A DNA stretch of 64,000 bases. It comes from Alphaproteobacteria bacterium (GTDB lineage: Bacteria > Pseudomonadota > Alphaproteobacteria > CAAHEQ01 > UBA3637). The DNA lies in contig SUUT01000003.1 of the NCBI GenBank assembly GCA_015062385.1, positions 76,066 to 140,065 on the forward strand, in the 5' to 3' direction. Numbering within the stretch: position 1 is the stretch's first letter; every line of letters begins with the position of its first letter. Below the pieces are notes generated by a model. That model did no database searches, was not told the DNA's origin, and saw only the letters and a program-made list of their open reading frames with translations. Shown piece after piece: positions 14,713-56,411 of the stretch. A program made the translations under genes and the position numbers.

Positions 14713-14791
14713 CGATTAATATCGGCAAATATTATTATAACAATATTTTATTTGAAAAACAAGTTTTATATGCGATTAATGTATAGAAAAA

Positions 14792-27199: not shown

Positions 27200-27240
27200 C
27201 GACAAATGGTAAAAAATAATAGAAGATATTGACGTCATAC

Positions 27241-31433: not shown

Positions 31434-31500
31434 TAACTAATCGGGCAAAAATCATCATTATCTTTGAAATCCGTTCGGACAAAAATGTATGAAATTCTTA
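31430..31500 (+). repeat. relic copy of the island's tRNA-proximal arm
   Basis: ~72 bp (aaaatctaactaatcgggcaaaaatcatcatt...ccgttcggacaaaaatgtatgaaattcttat) is highly similar by eye to 56148-56216. Confidence 0.75.
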
Positions 31501-31554
31501 TTTAACATTATAGTAAAAGGACTGTATAGCTGTCCTTTCATATAATTTATTTTA

Positions 31555-33044: not shown

Positions 33045-33087
33045 TTTATCATTTTTTTATACTTAAAAATGCCTGAAATTAGGGCAA

Positions 33088-33140
33088 AAAAAAGCCCTTA
33101 AAGATAAGACTTTAAGGGATAAATGGTGCCGATTGGGTGA
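33088..33140. repeat. attL: 53-bp direct repeat (tRNA-Thr 3' 17 nt plus 36 nt downstream)
   Basis: aaaaaagcccttaaagataagactttaagggataaatggtgccgattgggtga is identical to 56300-56352. Confidence 0.9.
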
Positions 33141-33955: not shown

Positions 33956-35641
33956 TTACTGAGTGGATAAGATATTTTGGATAGTTCTTCCAACATAACT
34001 TTTATTACCATACAGTCTTTGACCAATTCCTCTATCTGCCCAACCACAAAGTGCATTTTGGTATTCTGCAGGTATTCTCACTTCTACTGCCTTTGTTTCA
34101 AATGTATGTCTAAATGAATGGAAGACCTTATCTGAACCTGTTATGTCTATTTTATCTAAATATCTTCCAAACCAATGTTGAACAGAATTACTATAACGTC
34201 CCCGTTCTATTTGTGTTAATTCGCTAAATAACTTTTTGGCTTTGTTTTTTCTTTGAAACTCTACATATCTTAAAAATCCTAATTCGATTATTTGAGGGTG
34301 AATGGGTATAATTCTTTCAGATGTCTTGTTTTTAACTGATTTATCTTTGTCATTCCCATGAATAGATATACAGGGTATCCCTTTTTTACTCACAATATCT
34401 GTTACATCTAATTGGCAGATTTCATTTAAACGACATCCATGATATAATGCAATTATCGGAACCCAAAATTTGGCTTGATTGTTTCTCATCTTCGGACTGG
34501 GATATGTCTTGGGATTAAATATCTTATGTAGTTCCGAATTATCAAACGGGTTTCTTGCTTCTTTTTCTATCTTAATCGGTTTATCTATGTAATCATTCAT
34601 ATTGTTTTCAATAATGTCTTCTCGAACTGCATATCTCATAAAGTTGGTAAAGACATTCAGATATCCTTTTATTGTTTGCTTCCCTAATGCTTTATTTTCT
34701 GATTTCGTTAATATCTCTTTTATGGTTTTACCTTTTTCTATCTCAGTATGCCATTTTTTAGGAACTTGATAAATCTTTTCACTTAATTTGCGACAGTCTT
34801 GTTTTGTTATTTCTTCTATATATTCTCTTCCCATAATTAAAAAGGCTAATTTAATTGACAAATACATAGTCCTGATGCGTTCGTCTGGTATTCCTTTTAA
34901 ATTCTTTTTATTCTGAGCATACTTTTTAAAGAACTTTTCCCAATGGGTTTTGGTCATGGATTTAGTCAGACGTTCTGTGGTCTTCATGTTATCATAACTT
35001 TTAAGTAAAGTTTTAACCTTGGGATTGCTTGGGTTATAAGGTTTGTCTTTCTTAATTGCTTTGATACTTTTTTCTGCATATCTTTCTAATGCAGAAACAT
35101 GACTGCCAAAACTTTTAAACCATTCATACCCATCTTTTGCTTTGTCTTCTAAACCCAGTTCAATCTCTTTTTCCTTTAACTTGGTATAGGTTGTGCGAAG
35201 AGTAATATTGGCTTGAGAGTTTTCAACCAAACTCCTTAAATAGTCCAATATCATTTGAACCATTAACTCTTTTCTTTGTTCTGTGGGTAGTTTGATGTCT
35301 TCAATGGTTTTCTTGCCTTCTACAATATTCTCAGCATTTTCTTCCAAAAAGTATTGAATTTGACTAAGTCTTGCCAGCAATATCTTATCAACATCATTTT
35401 CATCCAGAACAACTTTGTTTTCTTTGTTAATTTTCATAATAATATCCTCAAATACATCCATAAATGTTTGTAAATGAGCAATTTCTGTTCGCCATCTGGC
35501 AACAGCAAGTTTGTAATCTGATGTGTCTAATGTATAACAAATCTCTTTACATTTTGCCAATGTCCAATACTTTCTGGGTACACCGACCCTAAAATAAAAA
35601 GCACGACCTTTGACAATCAGTCCCGGATATCTTTGAACCAT
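33956..35641 (-). CDS. tyrosine-type site-specific integrase
   Basis: 561 aa. N-terminal GRAFYFRVGVPRKYW arm-type domain. Catalytic region LYHGCRLNE (Arg), HSFRHTF (H-x-x-R), C-terminal Tyr region. Confidence 0.85.
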   Translation of the reverse strand: MVQRYPGLIVKGRAFYFRVGVPRKYWTLAKCKEICYTLDTSDYKLAVARWRTEIAHLQTFMDVFEDIIMKINKENKVVLDENDVDKILLARLSQIQYFLEENAENIVEGKKTIEDIKLPTEQRKELMVQMILDYLRSLVENSQANITLRTTYTKLKEKEIELGLEDKAKDGYEWFKSFGSHVSALERYAEKSIKAIKKDKPYNPSNPKVKTLLKSYDNMKTTERLTKSMTKTHWEKFFKKYAQNKKNLKGIPDERIRTMYLSIKLAFLIMGREYIEEITKQDCRKLSEKIYQVPKKWHTEIEKGKTIKEILTKSENKALGKQTIKGYLNVFTNFMRYAVREDIIENNMNDYIDKPIKIEKEARNPFDNSELHKIFNPKTYPSPKMRNNQAKFWVPIIALYHGCRLNEICQLDVTDIVSKKGIPCISIHGNDKDKSVKNKTSERIIPIHPQIIELGFLRYVEFQRKNKAKKLFSELTQIERGRYSNSVQHWFGRYLDKIDITGSDKVFHSFRHTFETKAVEVRIPAEYQNALCGWADRGIGQRLYGNKSYVGRTIQNILSTQ

Positions 35642-37709: not shown

Positions 37710-37974
37710 AGATAATTATTTTATTGATGACATCGAGGATTTAAAGGAAATCCTTTCTGAAATCACAGACATCAATGCCCCTGTTAATAAGAATCTAGCA
37801 ACCTTACTTCACTTATGTTGTATCATGAGTTGTGATACAGCCCCGATTGAATACTTATTAGAGAAAGGAGCAAATCCTCATATCAAAGACAAGTTTGGCT
37901 TAACTGCTTTTGATTATGCCATCCGAAACCCCAACCAATGGGCAAGAATTCTAAATTATATTGCATTAAAATAA
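37699..37974 (+). CDS. short ankyrin-repeat protein
   Basis: 91 aa. IEYLLEKGANPHIKDKFGLTAFDYAI. Confidence 0.7.
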   Translation: MMNKDNYFIDDIEDLKEILSEITDINAPVNKNLATLLHLCCIMSCDTAPIEYLLEKGANPHIKDKFGLTAFDYAIRNPNQWARILNYIALK

Positions 37975-38004
37975 AAGGACTGTTCATCAGTCCTTTTCGT
38001 TATC

Positions 38005-39243: not shown

Positions 39244-39388
39244 TTGTAGCCCCTCTTTATGTCGTTTTAGATTTTACCGATTTATCGGAACTTTATAAAA
39301 TGATTATGGCATTAAAAGTACCAAAAGTCAAGAATTATTTTAGATTTTTCCGATTTATCGGAGTTTTCTAAAATAAAAGGACTGTTCA

Positions 39389-39937
39389 TCAGTCCTTTTT
39401 CTCATTATCTTGTATTGCTTTTTCTAATTGCTCTTCTGAAACACCATTTTTATAAAACAAATTCTCTAACTTTGTTGTTCTGTTTTCCAACTTTGCTATC
39501 CTTTCCTCTAATTCCTTTACTTTTCTTGTCAGTTCTTCATTTGTTAAGATTAAATCTGTCTTTTCTGAAACTAAATTATTCACTCGTCCTTCTGTGTAGG
39601 TTAATTGTTCTTGTAAGTATAGGTTTTCATTGACTGCTGTATCTCTTTCTGATTTTAACACCTTCTTATCTACATTAGTCATATCAAGACACAATCTTTT
39701 ATATTCTTTACCAGTCAAAGATAAAACTCGTCTGCCTTTTTTATCTATTTCCTTATAAAGGTATCCATCCCTTATTAAATCATTTATAAATGTTTTTGCT
39801 GTATTCACTGTCAAACCAATTGCCTCTGCTATGAACTCATTATTGGCAAAAAAGGCATAGTTATTACGGGTCTTAAACCATATATACTCTAACATATATC
39901 GTTTGGTTATTGACAATTCTGATTTTGATTTACTCAT
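39389..39937 (-). CDS. winged-helix DNA-binding protein with coiled-coil tail (possible replication or regulatory protein)
   Basis: 182 aa. N-terminal wHTH-like AEAIGLTVNTAKTFINDLIRDGYL and heptad-rich C-terminus. Iteron-like repeats lie immediately upstream. Confidence 0.5.
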   Translation of the reverse strand: MSKSKSELSITKRYMLEYIWFKTRNNYAFFANNEFIAEAIGLTVNTAKTFINDLIRDGYLYKEIDKKGRRVLSLTGKEYKRLCLDMTNVDKKVLKSERDTAVNENLYLQEQLTYTEGRVNNLVSEKTDLILTNEELTRKVKELEERIAKLENRTTKLENLFYKNGVSEEQLEKAIQDNEKKD

Positions 39938-40023
39938 CTTAAACTCCTGTTTTATTCATCACAGGGGTATTTATTCGGGTAAATATCCAAATTTTCATTT
40001 GAACAAAAAAATATTCGGGATAT

Positions 40024-40160
40024 TGTTATGTTCGGCATTTTAAGCCTTGAAGACTCTTATGTTCAGGACGTTAAAAAATGGAGGCTGTTATGTTCAACCT
40101 GAGGACCGATATGTTTTTTACCGAAGATGCTTATTCTCACTTCGGGAGGCTGTTATGTTC
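40024..40160. repeat. iteron-like direct repeats (TGTTATGTTC x3 exact plus 2 variants)
   Basis: tgttatgttc at 40024, 40086 and 40151. Variants at ~40055 and ~40108. The extended unit GGAGGCTGTTATGTTC occurs twice. Confidence 0.7.
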
Positions 40161-40723: not shown

Positions 40724-43621
40724 ATGTTAAACGCAGAAGAAATCAAAGCAAAATATTGGGCATTGGAGGTAATTTCATCTTCCAACCAATCGGACATTGC
40801 CAATTTGTCCGGTTCTTTGGAAACCTCCAAAATTGATTTAAATCCTCATCAAATTGAAGCCGCTTTGTTTGCTTTGAACTCCCCTGTATCACAAGGTGTT
40901 ATTTTGGCAGATGAAGTTGGTCTTGGTAAGACAATTGAAGCAGGTCTTGTAATTTCTGAATACTTTTCACGAGGTTGGACATCCGTCATAGTTGTTGCTC
41001 CCGCAAGTCTTTGTGCTCAATGGCAAGTTGAAATGCAAGACAAATTTAATTTGCCAACGCAAATTATAGATATAAAACTTTACAATTCGGCATTAAAAGA
41101 AAACAAAGATTTGTTTCAATTTAAAGGTATCTCAATTTGTTCATATAATTGTGTTCTTCAATTAAAAAAACAAATGAAAAATAAAGATTGGCATTTAGTT
41201 GTTATAGATGAAGCCCATAAATTAAGAAATCTTTACAAGGGTAAAACACAAATAGCCGAAGGGATATATAAAACATTTGAAAATCGAAAGAAACTATTAT
41301 TAACAGCAACACCGATACAAAACTCATTGATGGATATATTTTCACTTGTTAGTGTTATTGATACAAGCATCTTAGGTAATCAGTATTCATTTATGGAAAA
41401 CTATTTATATTCGGAAAAACACCATCAAGAACTAAAAGAACGGTTGAAATGTGTTTTACATCGCACTTTAAGAAAAGATGTTCTGGAATACATTAAATAT
41501 ACCAATCGTGAAGCAATGACAGTTGCATTTAATCCAACACCGGCCGAAGAAACATTATATTGTGCCGTTTCAAAATACATTCAAGAAGTCTCACAAATTG
41601 CCATTACAACTCGATTTAGAACATTGATTGTTTTAATGATACGCAAATTAATGAGTTCATCTACATCTGCTGTTAAAGGTACTCTTGAAGGACTAATGAA
41701 CAGATTAAATCGGATAGAACAAGTTCAGTCAGATATAGAAGATTTAAGTGATATTATCAAAGATGAAGATATTTTAAGAGAATATGCCGAAACAACCGAA
41801 TATCCGATAAAACAACAACTTTATTTTAAACAAAAACCTTTGTTGCAAAACATTGAATGGGAAAAGAAATGCTTACAACAACTGATGGATTTAGCATCTG
41901 AAATCAAAGTTGATGGAAAGACTGAAAAATTGATTGAAGCCCTTCATCAAGGGTTTGATAAGATACAAGCCAAAGGAGGGCAAAGAAAGGCTATTATCTT
42001 TACAGAAAGCAACAGAACATTGAATTATTTGTTTAATTACCTATCAAAAAATGGTTTTAAAGATAAAATCGTAACTTTTAATGGGCAAAATAATTCTCCA
42101 CTATGCAATCAAATATACAGTGATTTTGTAGAAAATCATTCATCAGATTTAACAGGTTCTCGAACAAATGACATGAAAAAAGCACTTGTAAATGCTTTTA
42201 AAGAAAATGCCGAGATTATGATTGCAACAGAGGCTGCTGCTGAGGGTTTAAACTTGCAGTTCTGTTCTCTTTTGGTCAATTATGACTTGCCTTGGAATCC
42301 TCAAAGAGTGGAACAACGAATTGGGCGTGTTCATCGGTACGGTCAAAAGTCTGATGTTGTTATCATTAACTTTATTAACAAGAAAAATGTTGCTGATGTA
42401 AGACTTTATGACATTTTGCAACACAAATTTAAGTTGTTTGATGGTGTATTCGGAGCAAGTGATGAGATTTTGGGAACACTCTCAGATGGCGTTGATTTTG
42501 AAAAAGCCGTTGCCTCCATTTTTGAACTTTGCCGAACAACAGAAGAAATCAACCGTGCTTTTGATGAATTACAAGAAAGACTAGGTGTTAAAAGAGAAGA
42601 AAAACTTGAAGAAGCCAAACAACTGGTATTAGAGAACTTAACGCCTACAACACAAGAAAAACTTCATCTTCGCCAACAACAAGTTGAAGATTATTTAGAA
42701 AGACGGAAACAAATCTTTTGGGATTTAACAGTTATTATGTTAAAGAAAAACCATCCGGATATGTTTATCAATGAACGGAGTAAAAAATTCGGTCCGTTTG
42801 AAGATCAAGTATTTGACATATACGATGAAGACAAAAAATACGGACACAATTTTAATTTTAAATTGGATTTTAATAAACGAGAATTTGAAATTCCTAAATA
42901 TATGATGTTACCAAGTGACAGAAAAGCCTTAAAACGTGCTCCGACTTCATATAATCCAGACTCAGGATATGGGAAAAGAATATTAGATGAAGCCATCCGA
43001 ACAAAAAGCCCATCCATTCATTTAATCTTAAATCCAACAGATAAATTAACCCCCGGATTAAAAGGACGATTAAAATTATCTCTTTATAAAATGATGGCAC
43101 CGGAAGATATGAAACACATGATATATACTGTTATCGGAGAGACAGGGGGCATATTAAAATTAAGTGCAGCAGATATTTTTGATAACATCAAAGAAGTTCA
43201 AGACAAATCCACTATTGGATATCAAGACTATCTGAATCAACTTCATCAAGAAAATATCAAAAAGTATGAAAAGTCCCAACAAAAACGAATAGATATGCTT
43301 TTGAAAGAGGAAATAGATAAACTCAATCGTTGGCTGATAGATGAAAAGCAAGCCATCCATTTAAAGGGAGAAAAGGAAAAGAATAAGATAACAAATCTTA
43401 AAAGACAATTAAAGATGGAAAAGGATTTTGAGGCAAAGCTGAAATTAAAAGCCGAAATCAAAGAGTTAGAAAATCAAATGAACAGCAACGAATTCAACAC
43501 ATTTGATACAGAACGAGAACTTGAAAAGAAATGTAACCGTTTAATTGGTGGCAAGAAACGAAGTCTTAAACTTGTTCATTCTGTTGAGGATGTGTTTGAT
43601 GTGTCGTGGAGTGTGGGGTAA
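40724..43621 (+). CDS. SNF2-family helicase with long uncharacterised C-terminal region
   Basis: 965 aa. ADEVGLGKTIEAG (motif I), VVIDEAHKLRN (motif II), LTATPIQN (motif III), helicase-C NPQRVEQRIGRVHRYGQ. The last ~350 aa are unassigned. Confidence 0.85.
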   Translation: MLNAEEIKAKYWALEVISSSNQSDIANLSGSLETSKIDLNPHQIEAALFALNSPVSQGVILADEVGLGKTIEAGLVISEYFSRGWTSVIVVAPASLCAQWQVEMQDKFNLPTQIIDIKLYNSALKENKDLFQFKGISICSYNCVLQLKKQMKNKDWHLVVIDEAHKLRNLYKGKTQIAEGIYKTFENRKKLLLTATPIQNSLMDIFSLVSVIDTSILGNQYSFMENYLYSEKHHQELKERLKCVLHRTLRKDVLEYIKYTNREAMTVAFNPTPAEETLYCAVSKYIQEVSQIAITTRFRTLIVLMIRKLMSSSTSAVKGTLEGLMNRLNRIEQVQSDIEDLSDIIKDEDILREYAETTEYPIKQQLYFKQKPLLQNIEWEKKCLQQLMDLASEIKVDGKTEKLIEALHQGFDKIQAKGGQRKAIIFTESNRTLNYLFNYLSKNGFKDKIVTFNGQNNSPLCNQIYSDFVENHSSDLTGSRTNDMKKALVNAFKENAEIMIATEAAAEGLNLQFCSLLVNYDLPWNPQRVEQRIGRVHRYGQKSDVVIINFINKKNVADVRLYDILQHKFKLFDGVFGASDEILGTLSDGVDFEKAVASIFELCRTTEEINRAFDELQERLGVKREEKLEEAKQLVLENLTPTTQEKLHLRQQQVEDYLERRKQIFWDLTVIMLKKNHPDMFINERSKKFGPFEDQVFDIYDEDKKYGHNFNFKLDFNKREFEIPKYMMLPSDRKALKRAPTSYNPDSGYGKRILDEAIRTKSPSIHLILNPTDKLTPGLKGRLKLSLYKMMAPEDMKHMIYTVIGETGGILKLSAADIFDNIKEVQDKSTIGYQDYLNQLHQENIKKYEKSQQKRIDMLLKEEIDKLNRWLIDEKQAIHLKGEKEKNKITNLKRQLKMEKDFEAKLKLKAEIKELENQMNSNEFNTFDTERELEKKCNRLIGGKKRSLKLVHSVEDVFDVSWSVG

Positions 43622-43624
43622 GTG

Positions 43625-44395
43625 TTATTTTCCTTTTAAACAACGAAAAACAGTAGAAAAAAATATCTTTACTTTCTGGTTTTGATTACTTTTTTTTGCT
43701 TGAATTATTTCTTCACATCTTTTTATAGATTTTCTCCCTTTTTTCGATAAAGGGTAATAATCTGAACATATATGATTTTTTAATTCAGGCCAAAAATCTT
43801 TATCATCTATTCCCCATTCTTCTTTTTGACAACACAACCATTCTTCTTCAGGAGCTTCAGGACATTCCCCCATTCCAAATTCTTCTTTTAGTGGAAACTT
43901 ATTCCAAATAGTTTCTTTTTTTAAAGAATTTTGCATAACAGCCTTTTTAAAAACATCATTTACTTTCATAAAAGATGTTTGTTTTTCAATTCGTTCTTCC
44001 TTTTCTTTTAGTTTTTTATTATATTCTTCAATGTATGCATCTTTTTCCCTTTGTTCTTTTCCAAAAAAAGATAAATCGCCTTTTCCTAATAATTGAATTT
44101 CTTTGTCTGTTAGATTTTTTTTATCCGTATAATAATTGCCATTGCCAATAATGTTTGGTCGTTCATAGTATTCTTTACAATGCATACAAAAAGCACATTT
44201 GGTACAGTTTCTTTTTTTGCGTACAACTTTCTTTATGTTGTTATAACCGATTAAAGTGATCAAAAAAACTATTACAGAGATAGTAAGAACAATTAAGGTA
44301 TAACTTACTATTTTGTATTCAAAATTTATATAATGGTTTTCTAAAAAAACAATTTTATTAAAAATCCAAGCAAAAACACTATTTCTTATTCCCAT
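43625..44395 (-). CDS. hypothetical membrane-anchored Cys-motif protein, translationally coupled to mod
   Basis: ATG lies 2 nt after the mod stop. One TM helix, then CTKCAFCMHC, then a further Cys-containing C-terminal region. Confidence 0.55.
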   Translation of the reverse strand: MGIRNSVFAWIFNKIVFLENHYINFEYKIVSYTLIVLTISVIVFLITLIGYNNIKKVVRKKRNCTKCAFCMHCKEYYERPNIIGNGNYYTDKKNLTDKEIQLLGKGDLSFFGKEQREKDAYIEEYNKKLKEKEERIEKQTSFMKVNDVFKKAVMQNSLKKETIWNKFPLKEEFGMGECPEAPEEEWLCCQKEEWGIDDKDFWPELKNHICSDYYPLSKKGRKSIKRCEEIIQAKKSNQNQKVKIFFSTVFRCLKGK

Positions 44396-44396
44396 A

Positions 44397-46034
44397 CTAC
44401 CCCTCATTTTCTTCTTCAAATTCAAAGTCTTCATCTTTTGGGGTGTAGTCTTTGAGGTTAAGAGGGTATCCGGCACGACCCCATTCGCATTTGGATAAAA
44501 TGGCTGTTGGAATCTTTTTAACCGTTATATTCGGATAATTGTTTGGATTTCCCATAAAGGCTTTGCAACAGATTAACAGGTTATTATCCCCCACTTCTTC
44601 GGCAATTTTAGCTAAAGAAGTTTCTTGTAAGCCCATTGTTGTGGTATAGATAAAACTCTTTTCGGATGAATAGCCTTGTTTCCAATACTTTTCTGTATCG
44701 GGTTTATAGTGATAGCCCAAAACCTTACACATGGCTTCGGCGAGCATATCGGCATTATATTCGGGGGAAATAATATCCATACCAAAAGAATCTTTGACGA
44801 TTAAAGAAGATGCTAATTCATAGAATTTGAACCCACCACCACAAGTCCAACCGGTTGCTTTGGTAACACCGCCGGCATCTTCACCTTTAATAACTTTTTG
44901 AAGTCTTGGTAAACAATGGGTATAGATATGGTCTCCCATTTCTACACCAATCCATCTACGTCCCATTTTATGAGCAACAGCACAAGTTGTTCCTGACCCC
45001 AAGAAACTATCAAGAACGATGTCGCCCGGGTTTGTTGCTAAATGTAAAATTCTATTGATAAGTTTCTCAGGTTTTGGGGTATCAAAAACATTCACAGAAT
45101 TAAAAGCAATCACTTCTTTTTTGGCATCTTGATTATGTCCAACTTCTTGATGTGTCCAAATGGTCATTGATGTCATACCATCTTTTACTTCTGATAAAAA
45201 ACGTTTAATTCTCGGAACACTATCTCCCTTGGGACCAAACCATATTCTGTTATCTTTTATCATATTATCCAGTGTTTCTTTACTTAATCTCCAACTTGTC
45301 CCAACAGGGGGCATAACCTCTCTCCCAGAAGGTGTTGTAATTGAGTATATATCTTTTTCAGTAATACGTTTAACTGAAATATCACCAGATGTCCAAGGTC
45401 CTCTTGGATCATTGTCAGGGTTTTTATAACGAGCATTCATTTCATCTGTTCTTGGAAGTAAATTTGGTTTCCATTCAAATTTATTTTTTGCATAAACCAT
45501 TATAAAATCATGATTGTCTGACAGCCATTTTGCATCATTTTGTGGAGAGAATTTTTTTTGCCAAATAACATTATTTACGAAATTTGCACGACCAAAAATC
45601 TCATCACATAACACTTTACAATAGGCTTGTTCATTATCATCTAATGAAATCCAAATACTTCCATCTTCCGATAACAATCGTCTTAAAATCTCTAATCTAT
45701 CACGCATTAAGGAAAGCCAGATAGAGTGTTCCAAGCCGTCATCATAGTGTTCAAAAGCATTACCTGTGTTATAGGGTGGATCAATATAAATACATTTAAT
45801 CTTACCTGTATAATCTTGTTCTAAAGCCTTTAATGCCAACAGATTATCCCCATGGATGAGCATATTGTCATAAGTTAGCTTGACTTTTTGTTCTTCAAAC
45901 AATCCATTCGGAGTTGTATCAGCTTCATAAGAAAATGACTTTTCTTTATCTTCTAACAAAATGCGAGGTTCCGGATTAAATCTATCCTCTTTCCCCGGCC
46001 ATGTTAACTCTAATCTCGTCAATTTACTTGTCAT
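44397..46034 (-). CDS. mod: Type III R-M DNA methyltransferase (Mod, N6-adenine, beta class)
   Basis: 545 aa. IYIDPPYNTGN catalytic motif upstream of DSFLGSGTT SAM-binding motif. The N-terminus LTWPGKE is typical of Mod. Confidence 0.85.
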   Translation of the reverse strand: MTSKLTRLELTWPGKEDRFNPEPRILLEDKEKSFSYEADTTPNGLFEEQKVKLTYDNMLIHGDNLLALKALEQDYTGKIKCIYIDPPYNTGNAFEHYDDGLEHSIWLSLMRDRLEILRRLLSEDGSIWISLDDNEQAYCKVLCDEIFGRANFVNNVIWQKKFSPQNDAKWLSDNHDFIMVYAKNKFEWKPNLLPRTDEMNARYKNPDNDPRGPWTSGDISVKRITEKDIYSITTPSGREVMPPVGTSWRLSKETLDNMIKDNRIWFGPKGDSVPRIKRFLSEVKDGMTSMTIWTHQEVGHNQDAKKEVIAFNSVNVFDTPKPEKLINRILHLATNPGDIVLDSFLGSGTTCAVAHKMGRRWIGVEMGDHIYTHCLPRLQKVIKGEDAGGVTKATGWTCGGGFKFYELASSLIVKDSFGMDIISPEYNADMLAEAMCKVLGYHYKPDTEKYWKQGYSSEKSFIYTTTMGLQETSLAKIAEEVGDNNLLICCKAFMGNPNNYPNITVKKIPTAILSKCEWGRAGYPLNLKDYTPKDEDFEFEEENEG

Positions 46035-46046
46035 TTTCTTGTTCCT

Positions 46047-46484
46047 TTACATATATTCATTTTCAATTTGTTGAGATAACTCTTTAAAAGTTTGCAATTT
46101 ATCACACATATCTTTTGCATCCAACAAATTATCCACTCTATCTAACAAATTATAAATTCTTTGAAGTTTTTGATTGTCTTTTAGTTTTTTAAGGGAGTAG
46201 TCCATTGGCATTTGAAAATAGGAACTATCTGAAAAATCAGAAACAAGTCGTATTCTATCTGGCACACCGAACTGCCTAAACATATCATTTGTTGCTTGTC
46301 GCTCTTCAGGAGACATTTTAAAGTTAATTTCTTCCTTTTGCATCATTTTCATACAAGCCATAATAAGTGTCTTAAAATATGGTGAACAATTTTCCATCAA
46401 GTATCCCATAGCAAGATTCCTCAACTTTCTCATGATACTGATAAATTTCTCTGCAATTTTATTTTCTAACTCTTTATTAGTCAT
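46047..46484 (-). CDS. hypothetical protein
   Basis: 145 aa, helical. Overlaps the upstream ORF by 8 nt. Confidence 0.5.
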   Translation of the reverse strand: MTNKELENKIAEKFISIMRKLRNLAMGYLMENCSPYFKTLIMACMKMMQKEEINFKMSPEERQATNDMFRQFGVPDRIRLVSDFSDSSYFQMPMDYSLKKLKDNQKLQRIYNLLDRVDNLLDAKDMCDKLQTFKELSQQIENEYM

Positions 46485-47253
46485 TAGTTTTATCCTTTAT
46501 CTTTTTATTATATTCTTCTAATTCTTGTTTTGCTGTTTTAAATTCAACAGAAAAATGTTTAAGGTAAACACTATCCAGTTTTAATTTTTTCTTCTTTTGG
46601 GGAAGTGAAGATGTTTTTTCTATTAATTCTTCTGTTCTTAACAACAAATCATTTATATGCATAATATTTCTTCTAACATTCATTTTATCTTCAGCAATTA
46701 AATTAGTGACTCTTAAAAGTTTAGCTTCTTGATTTTCACAACAACCAATATCTTGTAAAATTTTATTTCTATGTTGCACTAATTCTGTAATAATATAACT
46801 TCTTTGAATTATTACAAGTAAATCAACAACATAATTGCCATCCAATTCTATGCATGATGAATATTTTGATGCATTTATTGTATCAAGAAGTGAAAGTCTA
46901 AAATAGTTACATTCTCCTAGTTCATGAGAATGTTTTGTTAAAACTTCTACAGGAGATAAAGATATAATATTTTGTAATTTTAGAAATCTTTGTTTTAAAT
47001 CTATCAAAGGTTGAATACTGGCATATAATACAGATAGTAATAAATTTAAATTATTTCTCAATTCTCTTAACTCTTTTTGTTTTTCTGCACGACTTGCCCC
47101 AAAAAGCCAACTTAACCACCATATAAGTAAAGGAATAGCAATAGCACCTATTAGTGGAATAATTATGTCCTTCCACCAATCATATGCAGTAGTAGAAGAT
47201 TGTGTTGATGTTGTAAAGTTTTCAATAAAAACCGTTAAAGACATTCTACTCAT
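46477..47253 (-). CDS. hypothetical protein with N-terminal TM helix
   Basis: 258 aa. IIIPLIGAIAIPLLIWWLSWLF, then a helical region. Confidence 0.5.
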   Translation of the reverse strand: MSRMSLTVFIENFTTSTQSSTTAYDWWKDIIIPLIGAIAIPLLIWWLSWLFGASRAEKQKELRELRNNLNLLLSVLYASIQPLIDLKQRFLKLQNIISLSPVEVLTKHSHELGECNYFRLSLLDTINASKYSSCIELDGNYVVDLLVIIQRSYIITELVQHRNKILQDIGCCENQEAKLLRVTNLIAEDKMNVRRNIMHINDLLLRTEELIEKTSSLPQKKKKLKLDSVYLKHFSVEFKTAKQELEEYNKKIKDKTND

Positions 47254-47264
47254 CCTTTTTGTTG

Positions 47265-47657
47265 TTAATATGGCTCATTATTGATTTTTGATACAAAATC
47301 TTGCAAACGTTCTCGGTCTTCATTTGCTTTGTCCCCTTTAAAATAAATCTCAACAAATGTTATTAGCCGTTTTTCTTCTTCCCATACAAAAACAACTCTA
47401 ATCCCTGATTTTGCTCCTCGCCCTTTTAATGTTCTACATGAAAATTTTCTAACTTTGTTAGATGTGTAGTTTTCATCACAAAATCCTTCTATCAGAACAA
47501 ATGCAGTTGTCGGTTCTCCTTTTTCATAAAAAGTCTCAATGGTATATTTTTTCATATACTCAAAATCTGTTTCCAAAGACTTAAAGCGTTTTAGCAATAA
47601 TTTAAAATCTTTATTAAATTCAGGAAGTTTTGTGTAATTAATCATTTTAATCTTCAT
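47265..47657 (-). CDS. RelE/ParE-superfamily-like toxin (candidate PanT)
   Basis: 130 aa. GAKSGIRVVFVWEEEKRLITFVEIYFKGDKANED resembles the RelE/HigB C-terminal pattern. Overlaps the upstream antitoxin gene by 11 nt. Confidence 0.55.
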   Translation of the reverse strand: MKIKMINYTKLPEFNKDFKLLLKRFKSLETDFEYMKKYTIETFYEKGEPTTAFVLIEGFCDENYTSNKVRKFSCRTLKGRGAKSGIRVVFVWEEEKRLITFVEIYFKGDKANEDRERLQDFVSKINNEPY

Positions 47658-48411
47658 ACTCCCGTAATGAAGTGCTTTCGTTTCTGTAAAAAACGGCTTC
47701 GTAATCTAAAACATCTCCCATTTCAGCCCCAATCCAAGGAATATCTTTGTGCGAATAATTGGATAACTCTGTTCCTGTTTTATCAGACAATCTATCTAAT
47801 TCCTTATCAATGTGTTCTAATTCACGAGCAGATAAAAGTGTTAAATCCGGCTTCTTTATTGGCAAATACTTTGTTTGTTCATGCTTGAAGAATTTTGTTT
47901 TAACTTCTTCCAATTCTCCATCTTTTTCCATTTCTTTAATTAATTTTGCAAAATCTACCGGCGTTGGTCCATAAGTGTTTTTTATGTATTCTAATCCCAT
48001 TAATTGTTCTTCATATAATTCATAGTAATCAAAATCTATAAAATATAACAATTTGTAAATAACTGTTTGTCCGACATTGGGTTTAGCCCCAACTTTGTTT
48101 AAAATATAAAGCAAAACCTGTTTAAATTTTTCAATATTTTTTTGAGGAATATCTATGCGAATATCTTCTTTAACATCTTCATCATTACTTTGTATGATAT
48201 TATATGCTGGTTTAACAGGCATTTTATTATCTATAAAACATGCATAATCAACATCAAAAATATTTGCTAGTTTTTTGATGATGTCTATTGGCAAAGAAGA
48301 TGTTTCATTTTCATATTTTCCCAATGTTTGACGAGCGATTCCTAACTCTTCTGCTAATTGTTCTTGGGAAATACCTTTTTCTTCTCGTAAAAGTTTTATA
48401 ATGTTAATCAT
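47647..48411 (-). CDS. XRE-HTH plus Panacea (DUF4065/SocA-like) antitoxin
   Basis: The N-terminus LREEKGISQEQLAEELGIARQTLGKYENE is an XRE HTH. The central KLLYFIDFDYYELYEEQLMGLEYIKNTYGPTP matches the DUF4065 core. Start placed at MINIIK with RBS aaagga. Confidence 0.7.
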   Translation of the reverse strand: MINIIKLLREEKGISQEQLAEELGIARQTLGKYENETSSLPIDIIKKLANIFDVDYACFIDNKMPVKPAYNIIQSNDEDVKEDIRIDIPQKNIEKFKQVLLYILNKVGAKPNVGQTVIYKLLYFIDFDYYELYEEQLMGLEYIKNTYGPTPVDFAKLIKEMEKDGELEEVKTKFFKHEQTKYLPIKKPDLTLLSARELEHIDKELDRLSDKTGTELSNYSHKDIPWIGAEMGDVLDYEAVFYRNESTSLREYED

Positions 48412-48541
48412 TGTAAATCCTTTCATCTTACCACATAATAGTAACATATTTTTTAAAAAATGTCAACAACTATTAACATAAATTTGTTAAATAATGATTA
48501 CATTTTTTGTTTTTTTCATTCTTTTTCAACTTTTTTCTTAA

Positions 48542-49381
48542 TTACTCATCCTTTTTGTCTTCAATGTGTTGATGTAAGTTTTTAGCATTTCGGGAAGTTA
48601 TGACCTTTTTACCTGTTTTGCTTTCAAGTTCTTTTCTTGCTTTGTTTGCAACTTCACCACCAGCACGAGCAACTTTTTTATGTTGTTCTAAACCTTTGGG
48701 ATTTTGTGCTTGTGATATTTCTGTTGCAGAAACTTCTGCCAACATATTCAGAACTAATTCCATATTGGTCATATTATCTCGTAAATTTTCTTTTTTAAGA
48801 CCTTTTAAGTCTTTATATGTGCGAGTTGTCATACCCGACCATGCTTTGGTTATTTCATCAGTTAAAATAGCATATTCTAAACCTTTTTGAATGCCACCTC
48901 TGTCCCATTCATCCGTTAAACCTTTTCTGATTTCAATAGATTTAAGACGTTGATTAACCCAAGATTCAGAATAACCTTTTTTCAAATAGGTTTCTAATGC
49001 ACGATTGATTGCTATTTCAGGGTCTTCCATTTCATCAATTCGTTCACGACCGACTTTGGCAAGCCACATCTTAAAAGGCTCTGCCTTTGGACTTGGAATG
49101 CTTTGAATAAGACGTAAAAGTTGTTCTGTATCAGCAACATCAGTTAGATACATCTTACCATCTGCAGCCTTCATTTTCAGTTGACTACAATTTGTAGTCA
49201 ACTCACTTCCTTCTGATTTCAACCTTGTTTTTAGAACACTCCAATATTTTCTTGGATTCGGGCTTTGAGTAAGTATAGAAATAACATCAACAATAGAAAA
49301 ATACCATTTTTCTTGGTTTTCATCCCATTCTACACGAACTTTCTGTTCTTCAAATAATTTTATGGCAGTTTCTTTATTCAT
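48542..49381 (-). CDS. Bro-N domain (DinD/antirepressor-like) protein
   Basis: 279 aa. FEEQKVRVEWDENQEKWYFSIVDVISIL is a Bro-N-like N-terminus. Confidence 0.6.
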   Translation of the reverse strand: MNKETAIKLFEEQKVRVEWDENQEKWYFSIVDVISILTQSPNPRKYWSVLKTRLKSEGSELTTNCSQLKMKAADGKMYLTDVADTEQLLRLIQSIPSPKAEPFKMWLAKVGRERIDEMEDPEIAINRALETYLKKGYSESWVNQRLKSIEIRKGLTDEWDRGGIQKGLEYAILTDEITKAWSGMTTRTYKDLKGLKKENLRDNMTNMELVLNMLAEVSATEISQAQNPKGLEQHKKVARAGGEVANKARKELESKTGKKVITSRNAKNLHQHIEDKKDE

Positions 49382-49383
49382 CT

Positions 49384-52098
49384 CTAACCCTCTTTACAAT
49401 CTGCGACCAACTTATCAAAAGTCCGATTGAGAACAACCATTGTGTCAGGTATCAACAAATAATGCCAAGGCTTGTCGTTGTGTTCTTCTTCAAACTTTGT
49501 AGCAATTTCACACCATCTGACAGCTGCATCCTTTTTGGCTTGAACTGTTTTGTCATCAATGTCTTTTTCGGCTTTTGTTTCAATCATATACTTGGCTTTT
49601 GTCGTTTCCACAATAAAGTCAGGCAGATATGTTTTAACTTCATGGGTTGATACATCTTGATATTTGATGTCAAAGATTTCTCTTGCTCTGTCGTTGTTGA
49701 TTTTAAACCACTTTAACACTTCCGGAGCACTTTCTAAAATCTCGCAAAGGTCTTTTTCTGTACATGAATCAAACTTTTGTTTGGCAAACAGGCATTTATT
49801 AAATCCTTCAAATGCCATATTGCGAATTTTTGATTTGTCTTGAATATGTGCTTTATAATTCACACTTTCAGCCCCTTCGGTGACGGTGATTTTGTAAGAA
49901 GCCGTTGTAATGGTTGCATAACCACTATCTACACGAATGTTTAACTTTACAGGGGCTTGCTTTACATGGTCTTTGATTTGTTTATAAATCTTTTTGGCAA
50001 TATCCTTGTTATTAAAGAACAAAATCTTTCTGGTGTTCAATTCACTGCCAGAATATGAAGTAATGTGGTCAATTACTTGATTAACCAATTTGTTTAACAA
50101 GTCGGCATTTGTATCATAGTCAATTAAAATTTCATCAATTAACAAGGTTAAAAGATAGTGAGTGATGTTTTCATATCTATCCACAAATTCAGCATTGAAC
50201 TCATCTCGGGCAGATTTGCTCAATAGTTCTTCAACCAACATTTTTTGTGGAATAGGTTCATATCCATTAAAATCAGATGTGGCAATGTCAAAATCTTCAA
50301 TGGTAAAATCACCTTCTTGTTCATACCAGATTTTAATACGGGGTGTGTCAATGCTCAATTTTCTGAAATTTTCTGTATATCGTTTCAGGGTTTCTTTGAC
50401 ATCAACTAATGGTTCCAAAGAAAGTTCTGATTTTTCCAATGCAATGTTTTTCAATCTGGTTTCAACCATTTCTTGCATTTTTTCTTGTGTCTCTTGAGTA
50501 CTTAAATCGGCTGAACTCATCACATAACGGCTTGTTTCGTTAATAACTTCCCGAACAGTTTCGGCAATTCGTCTGTTATCTTCATTTGAGAAAACAGGCA
50601 ATTTTTCTTGGGTTTGTGTTTTCCTTTGAACAACAACATTGCCTTCTTGAATTAACTTATCTAATTTACTTTCATTTTCAACAACAACCTTACCAATTAA
50701 GCCTTCATCAGAGTTATCAATATATTCCTGTTGAAATTCATAAGCCCCGGCACGAGCAGCTGAAATGATATCATTAAACTTATCATGAGCAATCACATGC
50801 AAACGGTCAATCATCTTATCTCCCGTCAATTCCCCAAAAGGCAAGCGAAGACCACGACCGATAGATTGTTCAACCAAAATCTTTGAATTTGCGGCTCTCA
50901 ATGGAACAATGGTATAAAGGTTATTAACGTCCCATCCTTCACCAAGCATGTTCACATGAATAACAATTTCTGTTGGTTCATTCGGGTCTTCAATATCCAA
51001 AAGTCTTTGAACCATTTCATCTTTTAATTCACCATTTTGTTTGGAGTGAACAATGATGACTTTTCCTTTATATCGTCCATCTTCAAAATCATCACTATCA
51101 ATACGGGTCAAAATTTCTTCTGCATGCCCTGTATTTTCTGCCACAATCATAATAAATGGTTTGACAAGTTTTGTTTTCTTGTTATCTGCATAAACTTGTA
51201 ATTCTGCCTTAATGCTTTCATGAACTTTAATGGCATCCACAATTTTAAGGTTTTCTAATTCAACCGAGTTGGCTCCATACAATTCTTTATCAAAATTAGA
51301 ACGACCAACAACCGATGGTTTCTTGACATATCCATCTGTAATCGCATGGGCAAGGTTATATTCATAAGCAATATTTCTAAATGCTTTTCCCTTAGCACCT
51401 GTTGATTTGGCTGTTGCCGTTAATTCAATTCCCAATACCGGATGCAACTCATTAATAGCTGCCATACCAGCACTAGCTCTGTATCTATGAGCTTCATCCA
51501 TAATTAAAACAAGGTCTTTTAATCCAGCCAAATAATCAAAGTATGATTGTCCTAAATATTCTGCCATTCTACGAACCCTTGGTGTTCCACGAGAATCTTG
51601 GTCAGAGTTGATTTTTGAAATGTTAAAGATGTTAATTCGTAATCTGTCATCATTTGGATTATCAAACAATCCACCCACTTGATTGTAATCATCACCTGTA
51701 ATAATTTGAGGTGTTCCCACATATTCTGTTAAACCTGGAAAGACATATTTCGGTGTATTGGGTGTAAAATCCTGCTTTAATTTGTTATAAATGGTTAAGT
51801 TTGGGGCTAAAACCATAAAGTTTTTAACCTTATATTCGGCATGAATATAGGCAATCATTGCACCCATCAATCTTGTTTTACCAACACCGGTTGCAATTGC
51901 AAAACAAAGACAAGGGAAAATTCTTTCAAAATCTTTTACAGATGGATGAATTTCTTGAATAATACGAAGGGTTTCTTCAAGTGAAATATCCTTTTTTAAT
52001 TCAATTCGTTCAAGGATTTGAGCCAATATATCTAAACTATCTTTTTGAGGCTGTCTTAAAGAGAGTGCTTGTTCAATTCGTCTTTGTGTATTGTTCAT
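49384..52098 (-). CDS. res: Type III restriction endonuclease subunit (Res)
   Basis: 904 aa. ATGVGKT (motif I), LIMDEAHRYR (DEAH), helicase-C, C-terminal PD-(D/E)xK-like LPDFIV...MIETKAEKD. Confidence 0.85.
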   Translation of the reverse strand: MNNTQRRIEQALSLRQPQKDSLDILAQILERIELKKDISLEETLRIIQEIHPSVKDFERIFPCLCFAIATGVGKTRLMGAMIAYIHAEYKVKNFMVLAPNLTIYNKLKQDFTPNTPKYVFPGLTEYVGTPQIITGDDYNQVGGLFDNPNDDRLRINIFNISKINSDQDSRGTPRVRRMAEYLGQSYFDYLAGLKDLVLIMDEAHRYRASAGMAAINELHPVLGIELTATAKSTGAKGKAFRNIAYEYNLAHAITDGYVKKPSVVGRSNFDKELYGANSVELENLKIVDAIKVHESIKAELQVYADNKKTKLVKPFIMIVAENTGHAEEILTRIDSDDFEDGRYKGKVIIVHSKQNGELKDEMVQRLLDIEDPNEPTEIVIHVNMLGEGWDVNNLYTIVPLRAANSKILVEQSIGRGLRLPFGELTGDKMIDRLHVIAHDKFNDIISAARAGAYEFQQEYIDNSDEGLIGKVVVENESKLDKLIQEGNVVVQRKTQTQEKLPVFSNEDNRRIAETVREVINETSRYVMSSADLSTQETQEKMQEMVETRLKNIALEKSELSLEPLVDVKETLKRYTENFRKLSIDTPRIKIWYEQEGDFTIEDFDIATSDFNGYEPIPQKMLVEELLSKSARDEFNAEFVDRYENITHYLLTLLIDEILIDYDTNADLLNKLVNQVIDHITSYSGSELNTRKILFFNNKDIAKKIYKQIKDHVKQAPVKLNIRVDSGYATITTASYKITVTEGAESVNYKAHIQDKSKIRNMAFEGFNKCLFAKQKFDSCTEKDLCEILESAPEVLKWFKINNDRAREIFDIKYQDVSTHEVKTYLPDFIVETTKAKYMIETKAEKDIDDKTVQAKKDAAVRWCEIATKFEEEHNDKPWHYLLIPDTMVVLNRTFDKLVADCKEG

Positions 52099-52265
52099 CT
52101 TTTAGTCCTTTACGGTTTAACGTCTTATGTTAGTTTAAAACCTTATAAAAAGCAAGAAAATAAAGAAAAAAAAGATGTTTAAGTTTATAAAGAAAAACAA
52201 TGCTTTTAAGCCTATCAAAATAAGATGGATTTTTACCTATATTAAAAAAAATCATCAAAACTGCA

Positions 52266-52303
52266 TTTTTTTGCGGACGAAAGGTAAAAAGTACGACAGG
52301 ATA
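52266..52303 (+). promoter_or_regulatory. conserved island promoter/operator motif (TTGCGGACG-N-AAAAAGTACG)
   Basis: Identical 38-mer tttttttgcggacgaaaggtaaaaagtacgacaggata at 55419-55456. A related copy (ttgacggacggataagaaaaagtacgg) lies on the minus strand at 35663-35695, upstream of the integrase gene. Confidence 0.6.
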
Positions 52304-53622: not shown

Positions 53623-55215
53623 TCATTTATCTTCTTTTGATTTATACTTTTTCCTTAATTCTTTTAATGTATTCCAATCTTGTTGTTTAAAGGCTGTTAA
53701 AGCATCAACCGGATATTGAATATCTTTTCCTTCTCCGATATATGGTATAGATTCTCGGGTAATTTTCTTTCGGTCAAGCATTCGCTTTTTTGATAAGTAT
53801 GATGGAGATTTGTTTAAAAAATAGGCTGCATATTCCGATTTTAAAAAGCCTGTTTCAAGTGCTGCAAGATATGCAGTCTTATTATCAAACTTTTGTTTTT
53901 TATCGGTCATTCCTTGTGGTAAAATATTTTGTTCTAAGGCTGTTTGTTCAAATTTGTTTTCAACCAATAAATGATATAAATTTTGTCTGGAATGTTTTAT
54001 TTTCAAATCTTCATTAGTAGCAACACAAATGTTTTTTATTATACTGTTTCTTCCTAATTTTATATCTTTTGTGGTAAATGATGATAAAAATGTTATGTAT
54101 TTTAAAATTATATCAATGTCTTTTATATAATTTAAAATCATTTCTCCTTCTAACTGGCTATTTTCAATAATAATTTTATCATCATATCCGTCAGACCTAA
54201 TATTTTCTATAGTCAAGTTACTCTCATTTTCAAAAAAGCAATGATGTATCCATATATAAGTATCTTTTAAGTTTATTTGGGCAATACAAAATTCCCCTCT
54301 CATTATACAATTATCAAATTCTACATGGTGCTGGATACATCCTAACAAATCAAACTTTTTTTCAAATACACAATGTTGAAAAATAAGTCTTCCGGGAGTG
54401 TTTGAAATAGATATGTTTGTAAATTGACAATCTCTAAAACAAATAGCATTTATAAATTCATCATTTATTTCTAATAATTCATATAAGGACTTATTTGCAT
54501 TGTTTTGGATAAAATCAAAACCTTCAAAAATAATGCAGTTATCCAGAACTCTAATACCATTAGGTGTTTTGTTTAATATGTTATCATTATCTTCTTTCGG
54601 TTCTTGAATAGAAAAATAAATATTTTTTATACCAATGGCCTCAATTAACAAATTAAATGCGAATTGTCTTAAATATTCAATCTGTGCTGAAAAATGTTTT
54701 AATGTCTTAAAAACAGCATATTGTCCATTTGTCCATATAAAAAAACGTAAAATGGATATTTTATTCAAAATTGTATCATCTATTTCATCATCATTATCAA
54801 TAACAAATATATTACATAATTCATTTTCTACAAATGCTTGAACTAATTTATCCGAATGTTTTGTTTGAGACGCTAGTAATATTTGATAAGATTTTTTTGA
54901 ATAACGAGCACTAGATATTTTGTCTTGTAGTCTATCTATATCAATTAAATTGTTAAATTTAATATTACAATAATAACATTGTTGTAATATGGTTAGAATC
55001 TGAGCACACAATCCGATTTTATGTTCCTCATTTATGAAAAAGATGTTTTTTACAGTATTACAGAAATAATCAACTTTGTTTTTCATTAAAAGAGGAAAAA
55101 TATCTGTATCAAAATCAAAATTAACCAATTGATACCTTTTTTCACGATTATATAGGATTGTATTAAAATGTTCTTCACTTCTTCCGAAATCATAATCTTG
55201 AATATATTGTCTCAT
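53623..55215 (-). CDS. hypothetical protein with beta-helix-like repeat region and C-terminal HTH-like segment
   Basis: 530 aa. The central region has repeated hydrophobic-Cys/Asn ladders (FRDCQFTNISI, FQHCVFEKKF, FDNCIMRGEF, IHHCFFENES). The C-terminus resembles excisionase/AlpA-type HTH. Confidence 0.5.
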   Translation of the reverse strand: MRQYIQDYDFGRSEEHFNTILYNREKRYQLVNFDFDTDIFPLLMKNKVDYFCNTVKNIFFINEEHKIGLCAQILTILQQCYYCNIKFNNLIDIDRLQDKISSARYSKKSYQILLASQTKHSDKLVQAFVENELCNIFVIDNDDEIDDTILNKISILRFFIWTNGQYAVFKTLKHFSAQIEYLRQFAFNLLIEAIGIKNIYFSIQEPKEDNDNILNKTPNGIRVLDNCIIFEGFDFIQNNANKSLYELLEINDEFINAICFRDCQFTNISISNTPGRLIFQHCVFEKKFDLLGCIQHHVEFDNCIMRGEFCIAQINLKDTYIWIHHCFFENESNLTIENIRSDGYDDKIIIENSQLEGEMILNYIKDIDIILKYITFLSSFTTKDIKLGRNSIIKNICVATNEDLKIKHSRQNLYHLLVENKFEQTALEQNILPQGMTDKKQKFDNKTAYLAALETGFLKSEYAAYFLNKSPSYLSKKRMLDRKKITRESIPYIGEGKDIQYPVDALTAFKQQDWNTLKELRKKYKSKEDK

Positions 55216-55487
55216 TGTTTATCCCCCATTAGTACTTTAGTTTAATATTTCTATGTTCAAAAGTCCAGATGATTCAAAAATGTTAAAAAAGATACATTTT
55301 TTAACATTATCTCTAAAAGTGTTGGTTTTCAGGGATTTTAAATAAAGGATAAAATATCTCAAAATCCAAAATGTTAAAGTTTGTTAGGTATCATTACTTT
55401 TTTTAACATTTTATGTATTTTTTTGCGGACGAAAGGTAAAAAGTACGACAGGATATATTCAGATGATAAAAACTGAAAGGAAACCCT

Positions 55488-56069: not shown

Positions 56070-56299
56070 TATCCAATGGGGCAAATATGTTTAATATCTG
56101 CAATAGGCAATCAGTCAAAAAAATGATTCATGTTCAATCATTCGAAAAATCTAATCGGGAAAAAGTCATCATTGTATTTAAAATCCGTTCGGGTAAAAAT
56201 GTATGAAAATCTTATGCTATGAGTGTGGTAAAATATCCATAACGGGCAAAGTGACGTGCAACTGTGACGGGAAAGTAAAATTATTGAAAAATAAGCAAT

Positions 56300-56335
56300 A
56301 AAAAAGCCCTTAAAGATAAGACTTTAAGGGATAAA

Positions 56336-56352
<17 letters not shown>
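56300..56352. repeat. attR: 53-bp direct repeat overlapping the tRNA-Thr 3' end and its terminator
   Basis: Identical to 33088-33140. Confidence 0.9.

Positions 56353-56411
<59 letters not shown>

Follow-up and report, generated by a model that had tools for sequence, protein, structure and literature searches.

Putative Type III-like restriction-modification core with an SNF2 helicase and two candidate slots for exchangeable defence cassettes in an alphaproteobacterial genome

The 64,000-nucleotide (nt) stretch of DNA analysed here, hereafter the window (positions 76,066 to 140,065 of contig SUUT01000003.1 from an Alphaproteobacteria bacterium), carries a restriction-modification (R-M) gene cluster in which the genes of a Type III-like restriction subunit (res) and of a Type III methyltransferase (mod) are separated by 3349 nt holding five further genes, in line with the res...mod order and the spacing of about 3.3 kb described in an earlier annotation of this DNA (the original prediction). 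On the minus strand, the cluster reads res (49384..52098; 904 amino acids, aa); a Bro-N domain gene (48542..49381; 279 aa); a gene for an antitoxin with an XRE helix-turn-helix (HTH) and a SocA-like Panacea domain (47647..48411, the open reading frame (ORF) being readable back to 48447); a gene for a putative toxin of 130 aa (47265..47657); tm258 (46477..47253; 258 aa); p145 (46047..46484; 145 aa); mod (44397..46034; 545 aa) and cys256 (43625..44395; 256 aa). The coordinates and the strand predicted for these eight genes were borne out. The cluster had been described as nine co-directional genes; it is real, but eight of its genes are co-directional and the ninth is snf2 (40724..43621, plus strand; 965 aa), which encodes a DrmD/BrxHII-like SNF2 helicase and converges on the others. 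Five genes lie between res and mod and one, cys256, between mod and snf2; all six are co-directional with res and mod. No transposase or pseudogene was found within the cluster, and a 74-aa ORF upstream of snf2 does not resemble a real protein.

The minus-strand genes are tightly packed. From res to mod, the short junctions are, in order, a 2-nt gap, an 11-nt overlap, an 11-nt gap, an 8-nt overlap and a 12-nt gap, as had been described, except that the ATG of cys256 lies 1 nt past the TAG of mod, and not 2 nt. The only wide junction, between the Bro-N and XRE genes, measures 94-130 nt depending on the start of the XRE gene, which is probably the ATG at 48411, preceded by an AAAGGA Shine-Dalgarno motif. 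A sigma-70-like promoter match (TTGACA-17-TACTAT, TG-extended; 48438..48466, minus strand) falls within this gap. It is a match to the consensus only, and the promoter scan as a whole did no better than chance (42 sites against 46 expected); it is the placement alone of this site, ahead of the XRE gene, that is suggestive. No terminator-like site was found on the minus strand of the cluster. At the other end, the convergent stop codons of snf2 and cys256 (43621-43625) are 3 nt apart, no stable fold was predicted at their junction (z-score +1.1), and in relatives the 3' ends of snf2 and of the genes on the mod side overlap by up to 49 nt. From the proximity of these stops and the lack of a predicted terminator, the two transcription units would be expected to run into each other.

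The neighbouring genes look intact, and so do Mod and Res, as originally proposed: the catalytic motifs of these two are present and both proteins are full-length as compared with their homologues. A PADLOC run on the cluster matched REase_III (Res), MTase_III (Mod) and PDC-S13 (the Bro-N protein), plus DrmD for the snf2 product. In Res, Pfam detected a ResIII domain (5.8e-23) together with a TnsA-like endonuclease region; the match to PADLOC REase_III was strong (4e-171), while that to the NCBIfam Type III endonuclease model was distant (E 7e-6). Across 30 aligned Res homologues, the motifs GVGKT (Walker A), DEAH, QSIGRG (motif VI) and PD...ExK do not vary, nor do the PD-ExK residues D827, E840 and K842. 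Res is therefore predicted to be a superfamily 2 (SF2) helicase with a C-terminal PD-ExK nuclease, and this combination of SF2 helicase motifs and a PD-(D/E)xK nuclease is that of Type III restriction subunits.

Mod matched Pfam N6_N4_Mtase (7e-52) and, over its full length, PADLOC MTase_III (9e-196). It carries IDPPYNTG near residue 85, before FLGSGTT near residue 343, i.e., the order of a beta-class N6-adenine methyltransferase: motif IV (DPPY), a target-recognition domain and then motif I (FxGxG). In the related locus L005 (surveyed loci are designated by L numbers), both ends of mod are 87% identical to those of the window but the central stretch (45042-45570) has diverged, a pattern that exchange of the target-recognition domain would produce. 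Mod identity likewise ranges from 63% to 76% across loci with identical res, toxin-antitoxin (TA) and tm258 genes. Phase-variable repeats were looked for in mod and res, and none was found beyond 8-nt homopolymers.

The product of snf2 has an SNF2-rel_dom (1.5e-35) and a Helicase_C domain (1.8e-19) in Pfam. Its best PADLOC match is DrmD (2e-192), followed by BrxHII and HmaA; against the NCBIfam model DrmD_b (NF038318) it scores 637 bits, for a cut-off of 950, over positions 23-653 of 868. To find related loci we scanned one genome per species with a Res profile, which yielded 80 loci, and metagenomes, which yielded 78 more; the ORFs in these relatives were labelled by tblastn against the window proteins. 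We distinguish distant loci, whose Res is about 40% identical to that of the window, from a gut clade, to which the window belongs, of human-gut Alphaproteobacteria metagenome-assembled genomes (MAGs), whose Res is 50-98% identical. Fifty-three distant loci offer 8 kb or more of sequence upstream of res: mod is present in 52 of them and an SNF2 homologue in 43, and such a homologue is co-located with mod and res in 28 of 29 close loci. The triads of distant loci span Acidobacteriota, Planctomycetota, Verrucomicrobiota (including Akkermansia), Bacillota, Cyanobacteria, Nitrospirota and Pseudomonadota, and the snf2-mod-res triad also occurs on Salmonella IncF and Aeromonas plasmids.

The recurrent order in distant loci is snf2 → mod → res on one strand, and the layout in the gut clade is always res → mod ← snf2. 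Comparison of the two indicates that the res...mod order arose when an ancestral snf2-mod-res layout was rearranged in one lineage, and was not produced by insertions. In addition, the DNA common to the window and to L004, a gut-clade locus whose Res is 98% identical at the protein level, extends exactly from 40724 to 52172: it opens at the start codon of snf2 and stops some 70 nt upstream of res, and the flanking DNA on either side is unrelated. In view of the conserved triad and of this shared block, we treat the unit as res ... mod ... snf2. The original prediction, limited to the minus-strand genes, had overlooked the conserved snf2 gene, and the boundary it gave to the unit was hence too narrow. 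A few loci depart from the usual gene content: L104 (mod-res-BroN-mod ← snf2) looks transitional between the mod → res and res → mod layouts, L028 (Bartonella sp.) has three tandem mod genes followed by res, and some relatives have two or three mod paralogues around one res.

Both intervals between the core genes commonly hold additional genes. In the 54 distant triads, more than 500 nt separate core genes in 32 (about 59%) and 23 are compact; about 40% of the distant loci have their core genes side by side and free of cargo. The gaps in distant triads reach 5961 nt between snf2 and mod, and 1581 nt between mod and res. All 28 complete triads of the gut clade carry cargo in both intervals, with gaps of 748-3586 nt between res and mod (3349 nt in the window) and of 392-2816 nt between mod and snf2. 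Of the embedded ORFs of at least 150 aa, 147 of 152 (97%) are co-directional and 5 are opposite. The cargo of distant triads includes RhuM, YhcG/DUF1016 nuclease, AIPR, ABC/SMC-type ATPases, Schlafen-AlbA_2, Fic, DUF2130, DUF6119 and PDDEXK_3; that of the plasmid triads includes an Abi-family protein and a pair made of an AAA ATPase and DUF4276. In the gut clade, the interval between mod and snf2 can hold RelA_SpoT/PDC-S33, ApeA_NTD1, Abi_C/AbiJ-like, PDC-S31/DUF2971, PDC-S32 or PDC-M36A genes, and the interval between res and mod can hold, as an alternative, another PDC-S13 subfamily or PDC-M04A/B. Comparison thus shows the gaps between the core genes to be cargo slots (hereafter the res|mod and mod|snf2 slots) for exchangeable defence or defence-candidate cassettes. 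The features of embedded defences are found here: the genes are nested between core genes in the same orientation, and the cargo varies and also occurs non-embedded, in the case of Bro-N and tm258.

Within the gut clade, the content of the res|mod slot is combinatorial. It consists of tm258 only in L007, L091-093, L102 and L151; of the TA pair and tm258 in L094-096, L098, L105, L108, L115 and L118; of the TA pair only in L097; of Bro-N and tm258 in L086-089 and L113, as well as at the start of L090, whose contig ends before mod; of Bro-N only in L104, where an extra mod lies upstream of res; and of a p145-like gene only in L084. Bro-N, the TA pair and tm258 are combined only in the window and in L004, among gut-clade loci. 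Whichever genes are inserted, they adjoin their neighbours just as tightly (overlaps of 1-8 nt), so that operon-like spacing is no argument for coupling. In the alignment of the window with L004, res, Bro-N, XRE, toxin and tm258 match without interruption. Homology is then lost over the exact extent of p145 (46502-46048), in place of which L004 has an unrelated 224-aa transmembrane (TM) protein. It returns in mod, is lost a second time over the exact extent of cys256 (44411-43628), where L004 encodes a 507-aa protein, and is recovered along snf2. Hence, p145 and cys256 were swapped precisely between core genes that are 92-96% identical.

Some cargo families have a life outside these loci. The Bro-N protein (cassette 1) matches Pfam Bro-N (1.2e-10), phrog_15286 (2e-137) and PADLOC PDC-S13 (PDLC04920; 2e-140), the last over residues 1-277 of 286, a full-length family match; we found no account of an anti-phage activity of PDC-S13 in the literature searched. 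It has 22 relatives (52-68% identity) in IMG/VR viral contigs, 21 of which lack this res/mod nearby, and in L017 a non-embedded relative lies 4 kb downstream of res. One IMG/VR viral contig (3300029870_000209; L184) has, at 3490-11772, a Bro-N/PDC-S13 relative between a weakly SNF2-like gene and mod/res-like genes, a further embedded instance in a different system.

The next two genes (cassettes 2a and 2b) have the organisation of a Panacea TA pair. The antitoxin combines HTH_3 (2e-16) with SocA_Panacea (2e-16, residues 131-238), and the 130-aa ORF overlaps it by 11 nt and always travels with it (12 loci). For the toxin, originally proposed to be RelE-like, the top five PDB sequence matches are all of the HigB-2/RelE family, but they are weak (E 0.014-0.04), the best being HigB-2 (E 0.014-0.024). 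No match was found for this protein in Pfam, PADLOC, NCBIfam or PHROGs, even a Pfam search at E 10 returned nothing relevant, and its single-sequence AlphaFold2 model was too poor to use (pLDDT 39.7).

Neither tm258 (cassette 3a), nor p145 (cassette 3b), nor cys256 has a match in Pfam, PADLOC, NCBIfam or PHROGs. The AlphaFold2 model of tm258 (pLDDT 84) predicts a single-pass, membrane-anchored, all-helical protein, with an N-terminal TM helix running into a helical bundle; a fold search of this model against the PDB returned generic helical bundles only, none with an E below 0.001. The tm258 family is small and fast-evolving, with 38 clusters in a 5.8-billion-protein database and 65 representatives in a 1.84-billion-protein library. 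It is nearly universal in the gut clade, and one homologue (40% identical) occurs on its own, next to a Hachiman system and an EcoO109I-type (Type II) R-M; another lies near a WYL regulator. As to cys256, predicted to have a TM helix and a Cys-rich CxxCxxCxxC motif, one other cluster is known (74% identity), which occupies the same mod|snf2 slot. The p145 family has 8 members, all within the res|mod slot. Autonomy of the cargo is shown for Bro-N and tm258, and it is plausible for the TA pair. A megablast of the cluster against plasmids returned only short Bro-N and methylase fragments.

The original prediction had left two possibilities side by side, a defence nest built by insertions into the R-M operon as a scaffold and an obligate composite of R-M with abortive-infection or TA modules. 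The combinatorial cargo, the swaps at exact gene borders, the presence of Bro-N and tm258 relatives elsewhere and the existence of cargo-free cores support the former and lend no support to the latter, though some synergy or co-regulation may exist. We propose that the locus consists of a three-gene Type III-like core (Res, Mod and SNF2) with two slots for exchangeable and independent defence cassettes, a reading to which we assign a probability of about 0.78.

By analogy with Type III biology, Mod would methylate host sites, and Res, acting with Mod, would cut unmethylated incoming DNA, with the SNF2 helicase possibly assisting or regulating this activity on DNA. In the window, the res|mod slot houses Bro-N/PDC-S13, a Panacea-type TA pair with its own likely promoter and a tm258(+p145) module, and the mod|snf2 slot the predicted Cys-rich membrane protein cys256. 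These cassettes would be independent second-line defences, of the abortive-infection or toxin type, and not subunits of one machine; they would share the transcription and the mobility of the operon. The conserved core genes may serve as homology anchors for recombination, which would account for the exchange of cassettes exactly at core-gene borders, and the target-recognition domain of Mod may be shuffled by the same route.

Several points weigh against this proposal. The argument is comparative throughout, the ORF calls are heuristic (longest ORF, greedy), and many gut-clade loci are non-independent, representing one species or its sister species sampled in several metagenomes. The p145 and cys256 families have been seen only inside the slots. 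The tight spacing and the lack of a minus-strand terminator-like site are compatible with one polycistronic unit, a pattern that leaves room for co-regulation and for some functional coupling. The nearly constant presence of tm258 just upstream of mod also fits an integral, lineage-specific subunit.

As a first alternative, the eight co-directional genes could form a single obligate machine coupling R-M to TA and membrane effectors, e.g., for abortive infection when restriction fails, as their shared orientation, their operon-like spacing and overlaps, the lack of a terminator-like site and the almost constant presence of tm258 in the clade might suggest. We regard such a machine as improbable, since each cargo module is dispensable in some close relative with intact res, mod and snf2, 23 of the 54 distant triads do without any cargo, and the same tight spacing is seen with unrelated cargo; furthermore, relatives of Bro-N and tm258 are found elsewhere, and the TA pair has a promoter-like site of its own, in the 94-130-nt gap ahead of it. 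A narrower proposal fares slightly better, while remaining unlikely: tm258, with or without p145, would be a lineage-specific fourth component, such as a membrane anchor or a regulator of Mod/Res, and only Bro-N, the TA pair and cys256 would be cargo. It accounts for the fact that, in most gut-clade loci, a tm258-family gene directly precedes mod and overlaps it by 4-8 nt, and for the small size of the family (65 representatives among 1.84 billion proteins), several of whose contigs have the same lengths as contigs with Res homologues and are probably shared with them. It does not readily account for the absence of tm258 from L097, L104 and L084, whose res and mod look intact, nor for its duplication in L087 and L088 or for the homologue standing alone next to Hachiman. 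Moreover, tm258 diverges far faster than the core (25-51% identity, as compared with about 70% for Res), and in L004 it is only 51% identical between flanking genes that are 97-98% identical.

By far the least credible of these alternatives is that the cluster is a decaying relic, an accretion of mobile genes whose insertion split and inactivated an R-M operon. The non-canonical order, the 3.35 kb between res and mod and the location on an integrative island (see below) would fit such a history. However, Res, Mod and SNF2 are full-length as compared with their homologues, their catalytic motifs are intact and invariant, and the cluster is free of transposases and pseudogenes. Furthermore, the res → mod ← snf2 layout is conserved across the clade at Res identities of 50-98%, which argues for purifying selection.

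If the preferred reading holds, the principle of embedded defences would extend to a Type III-like family, with two defined cargo slots that could be mined for new defence genes; for tm258, p145 and cys256, neither relatives nor a fold are known. Mod and Res proteins that pass for ordinary Type III in annotations are shown here to have a conserved SNF2 partner in many phyla and on resistance plasmids, which raises the question of the role of such helicases in DISARM-, BREX- and Hma-like systems. The gut clade also provides a natural series of near-isogenic loci, differing only in cargo and in the target-recognition domain of Mod, and useful for studying the turnover of defence repertoires. More tentatively, SNF2-Mod-Res could be a distinct, unnamed three-component system that needs a DrmD/BrxHII-like remodeller and stands between Type III R-M and DISARM/BREX, the slots being a hunting ground where tm258(+p145) and cys256 would be new membrane-anchored anti-phage effectors; we consider this further step possible but rather doubtful.

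The cluster lies on what is predicted to be an island of about 23 kb integrated at a tRNA-Thr gene (56336-56411, minus strand) and bounded by a 65-nt att-like direct repeat. The left copy of this repeat (33076..33140) is 92% identical to the right copy (56288..56352), which includes 17 nt of the 3' end of the tRNA. A gene for a 561-aa tyrosine integrase (33956..35641, minus strand; Phage_integrase 1.3e-8, DUF6538 3e-7) stands at the left end of the island, and a truncated integrase gene adjoins tRNA-Thr. A second 65-nt direct repeat (88%; 31437-31501 and 56151-56215) lies beside the tRNA-Thr repeat and suggests tandem or nested islands at this site.

Between the left end of the island and snf2, an AAA_14/DUF4143 ATPase gene (38005-39243, minus strand) matches the PADLOC candidate PDC-S01 (3e-119). 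It is flanked on both sides by identical 31-nt hairpin-like repeats (AAAAGGACTGTTCATCAGTCCTTTT; 37967-37997 and 39369-39399), and a further repeat pair lies at 39265-39301 and 39338-39374; these repeats may mark an inserted cassette or paired terminators. Between an HTH_36 gene and snf2 (40018-40160), a 16-mer (GGAGGCTGTTATGTTC-like) occurs four times, with a spacing of 31 nt for three of the copies; these copies resemble iterons or operator sites. Upstream of res, the 530-aa product of 53623-55215 (minus strand) has no family match; relatives of 373 aa (27-28% identical) are encoded immediately upstream of res, and co-directionally, in L086, L088, L106, L113 and L114, and it may be a further associated gene. 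A 42-nt repeat (52262-52303 and 55414-55455; 98% identical), which can be extended to about 60 nt, directly precedes both a plus-strand DUF6876 gene and the truncated integrase gene; it may correspond to a shared 5' leader or promoter, or to the borders of a DUF6876-ankyrin-p128-p530 segment.

Further away in the window, about 550 nt are duplicated 1.8 kb apart at 92-97% identity (28043-28617 and 29878-30451), with a third, partial copy at 27223-27325, and a tmRNA gene (14417-14737, minus strand) encodes the tag peptide ANDNFAPAALAA. This tag, the GC content of about 30% and the ankyrin-repeat genes are consistent with an uncultured gut Alphaproteobacteria MAG; JAZUBA010000044, with a Res 98% identical, is also from such a MAG.

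Several known systems resemble parts of this locus. Similarly to classical Type III R-M (EcoP1I/EcoP15I), it has a beta-class Mod with DPPY before FxGxG and a Res combining SF2 motifs with a C-terminal PD-ExK, and PADLOC MTase_III and REase_III are the best matches of its Mod and Res. It differs from it by a conserved third gene (SNF2) and by the res...mod order with 3.35 kb of cargo, in place of two adjacent genes. The DrmD-like SNF2 helicase beside an adenine methyltransferase recalls class 1 DISARM (DrmD, DrmMI, DrmA, DrmB, DrmC), but the DrmD_b score is under the cut-off, and here the methylase resembles a Type III Mod, with a Type III Res as effector. No drmA, drmB (DUF1998) or PLD (drmC) gene was found among the cluster or island proteins with Pfam and PADLOC, and compact triads in other genomes also lack adjoining large helicase genes. 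We rejected an identity with DISARM on the basis of the missing DrmA/DrmB/DrmC and of the DrmD score (637 for a cut-off of 950).

BREX type 3, Hma, BREX-related and ARMADA systems likewise combine a RapA/BrxHII-like SNF2 protein with a DNA methyltransferase (PMC12839542; 10.1101/2025.09.15.676423), whereas the nuclease partner here is Res. Searches of the cluster proteins revealed no PglZ, BrxC, DUF499 or YprA-family partner, and identities with ARMADA and with BREX-related (DUF499) systems were rejected, their defining YprA or DUF499/PglZ partners being absent. At the level of the cargo, the TA pair resembles the Panacea (PanA) pairs, with an XRE HTH and SocA/Panacea antitoxin followed by a small overlapping ORF, the difference being that the 130-aa toxin is only weakly HigB-2-like. 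Full-text searches of a limited literature set returned no named system composed of SNF2 and Type III Mod/Res, and no description of an embedding habit for this Mod/Res family was found in the literature searched.

The closest parallel to the arrangement as a whole is that of embedded defences. Hma, BREX, DISARM and Type I R-M systems often hold nested defence genes, of which 96.7% are co-oriented; embedded genes of this kind are the source of the PDC models (Payne, Hughes, Fineran & Jackson, "guilt-by-embedding", bioRxiv 10.1101/2024.01.29.577857). Here too, the cargo is nested in a modification-based system and is co-oriented (97%, as compared with 96.7%), and it consists mostly of known defences, PDC candidates and unknowns, the relatives carrying PDC-S31/S32/S33/M04/M36. 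The scaffold differs, in that it is a Type III-like Mod/Res with SNF2, and Type III was outside that survey (10.1101/2024.01.29.577857). Embedding itself is known; the novelty lies in the family that serves as scaffold, in its rearranged form and in three cargo families without known relatives.

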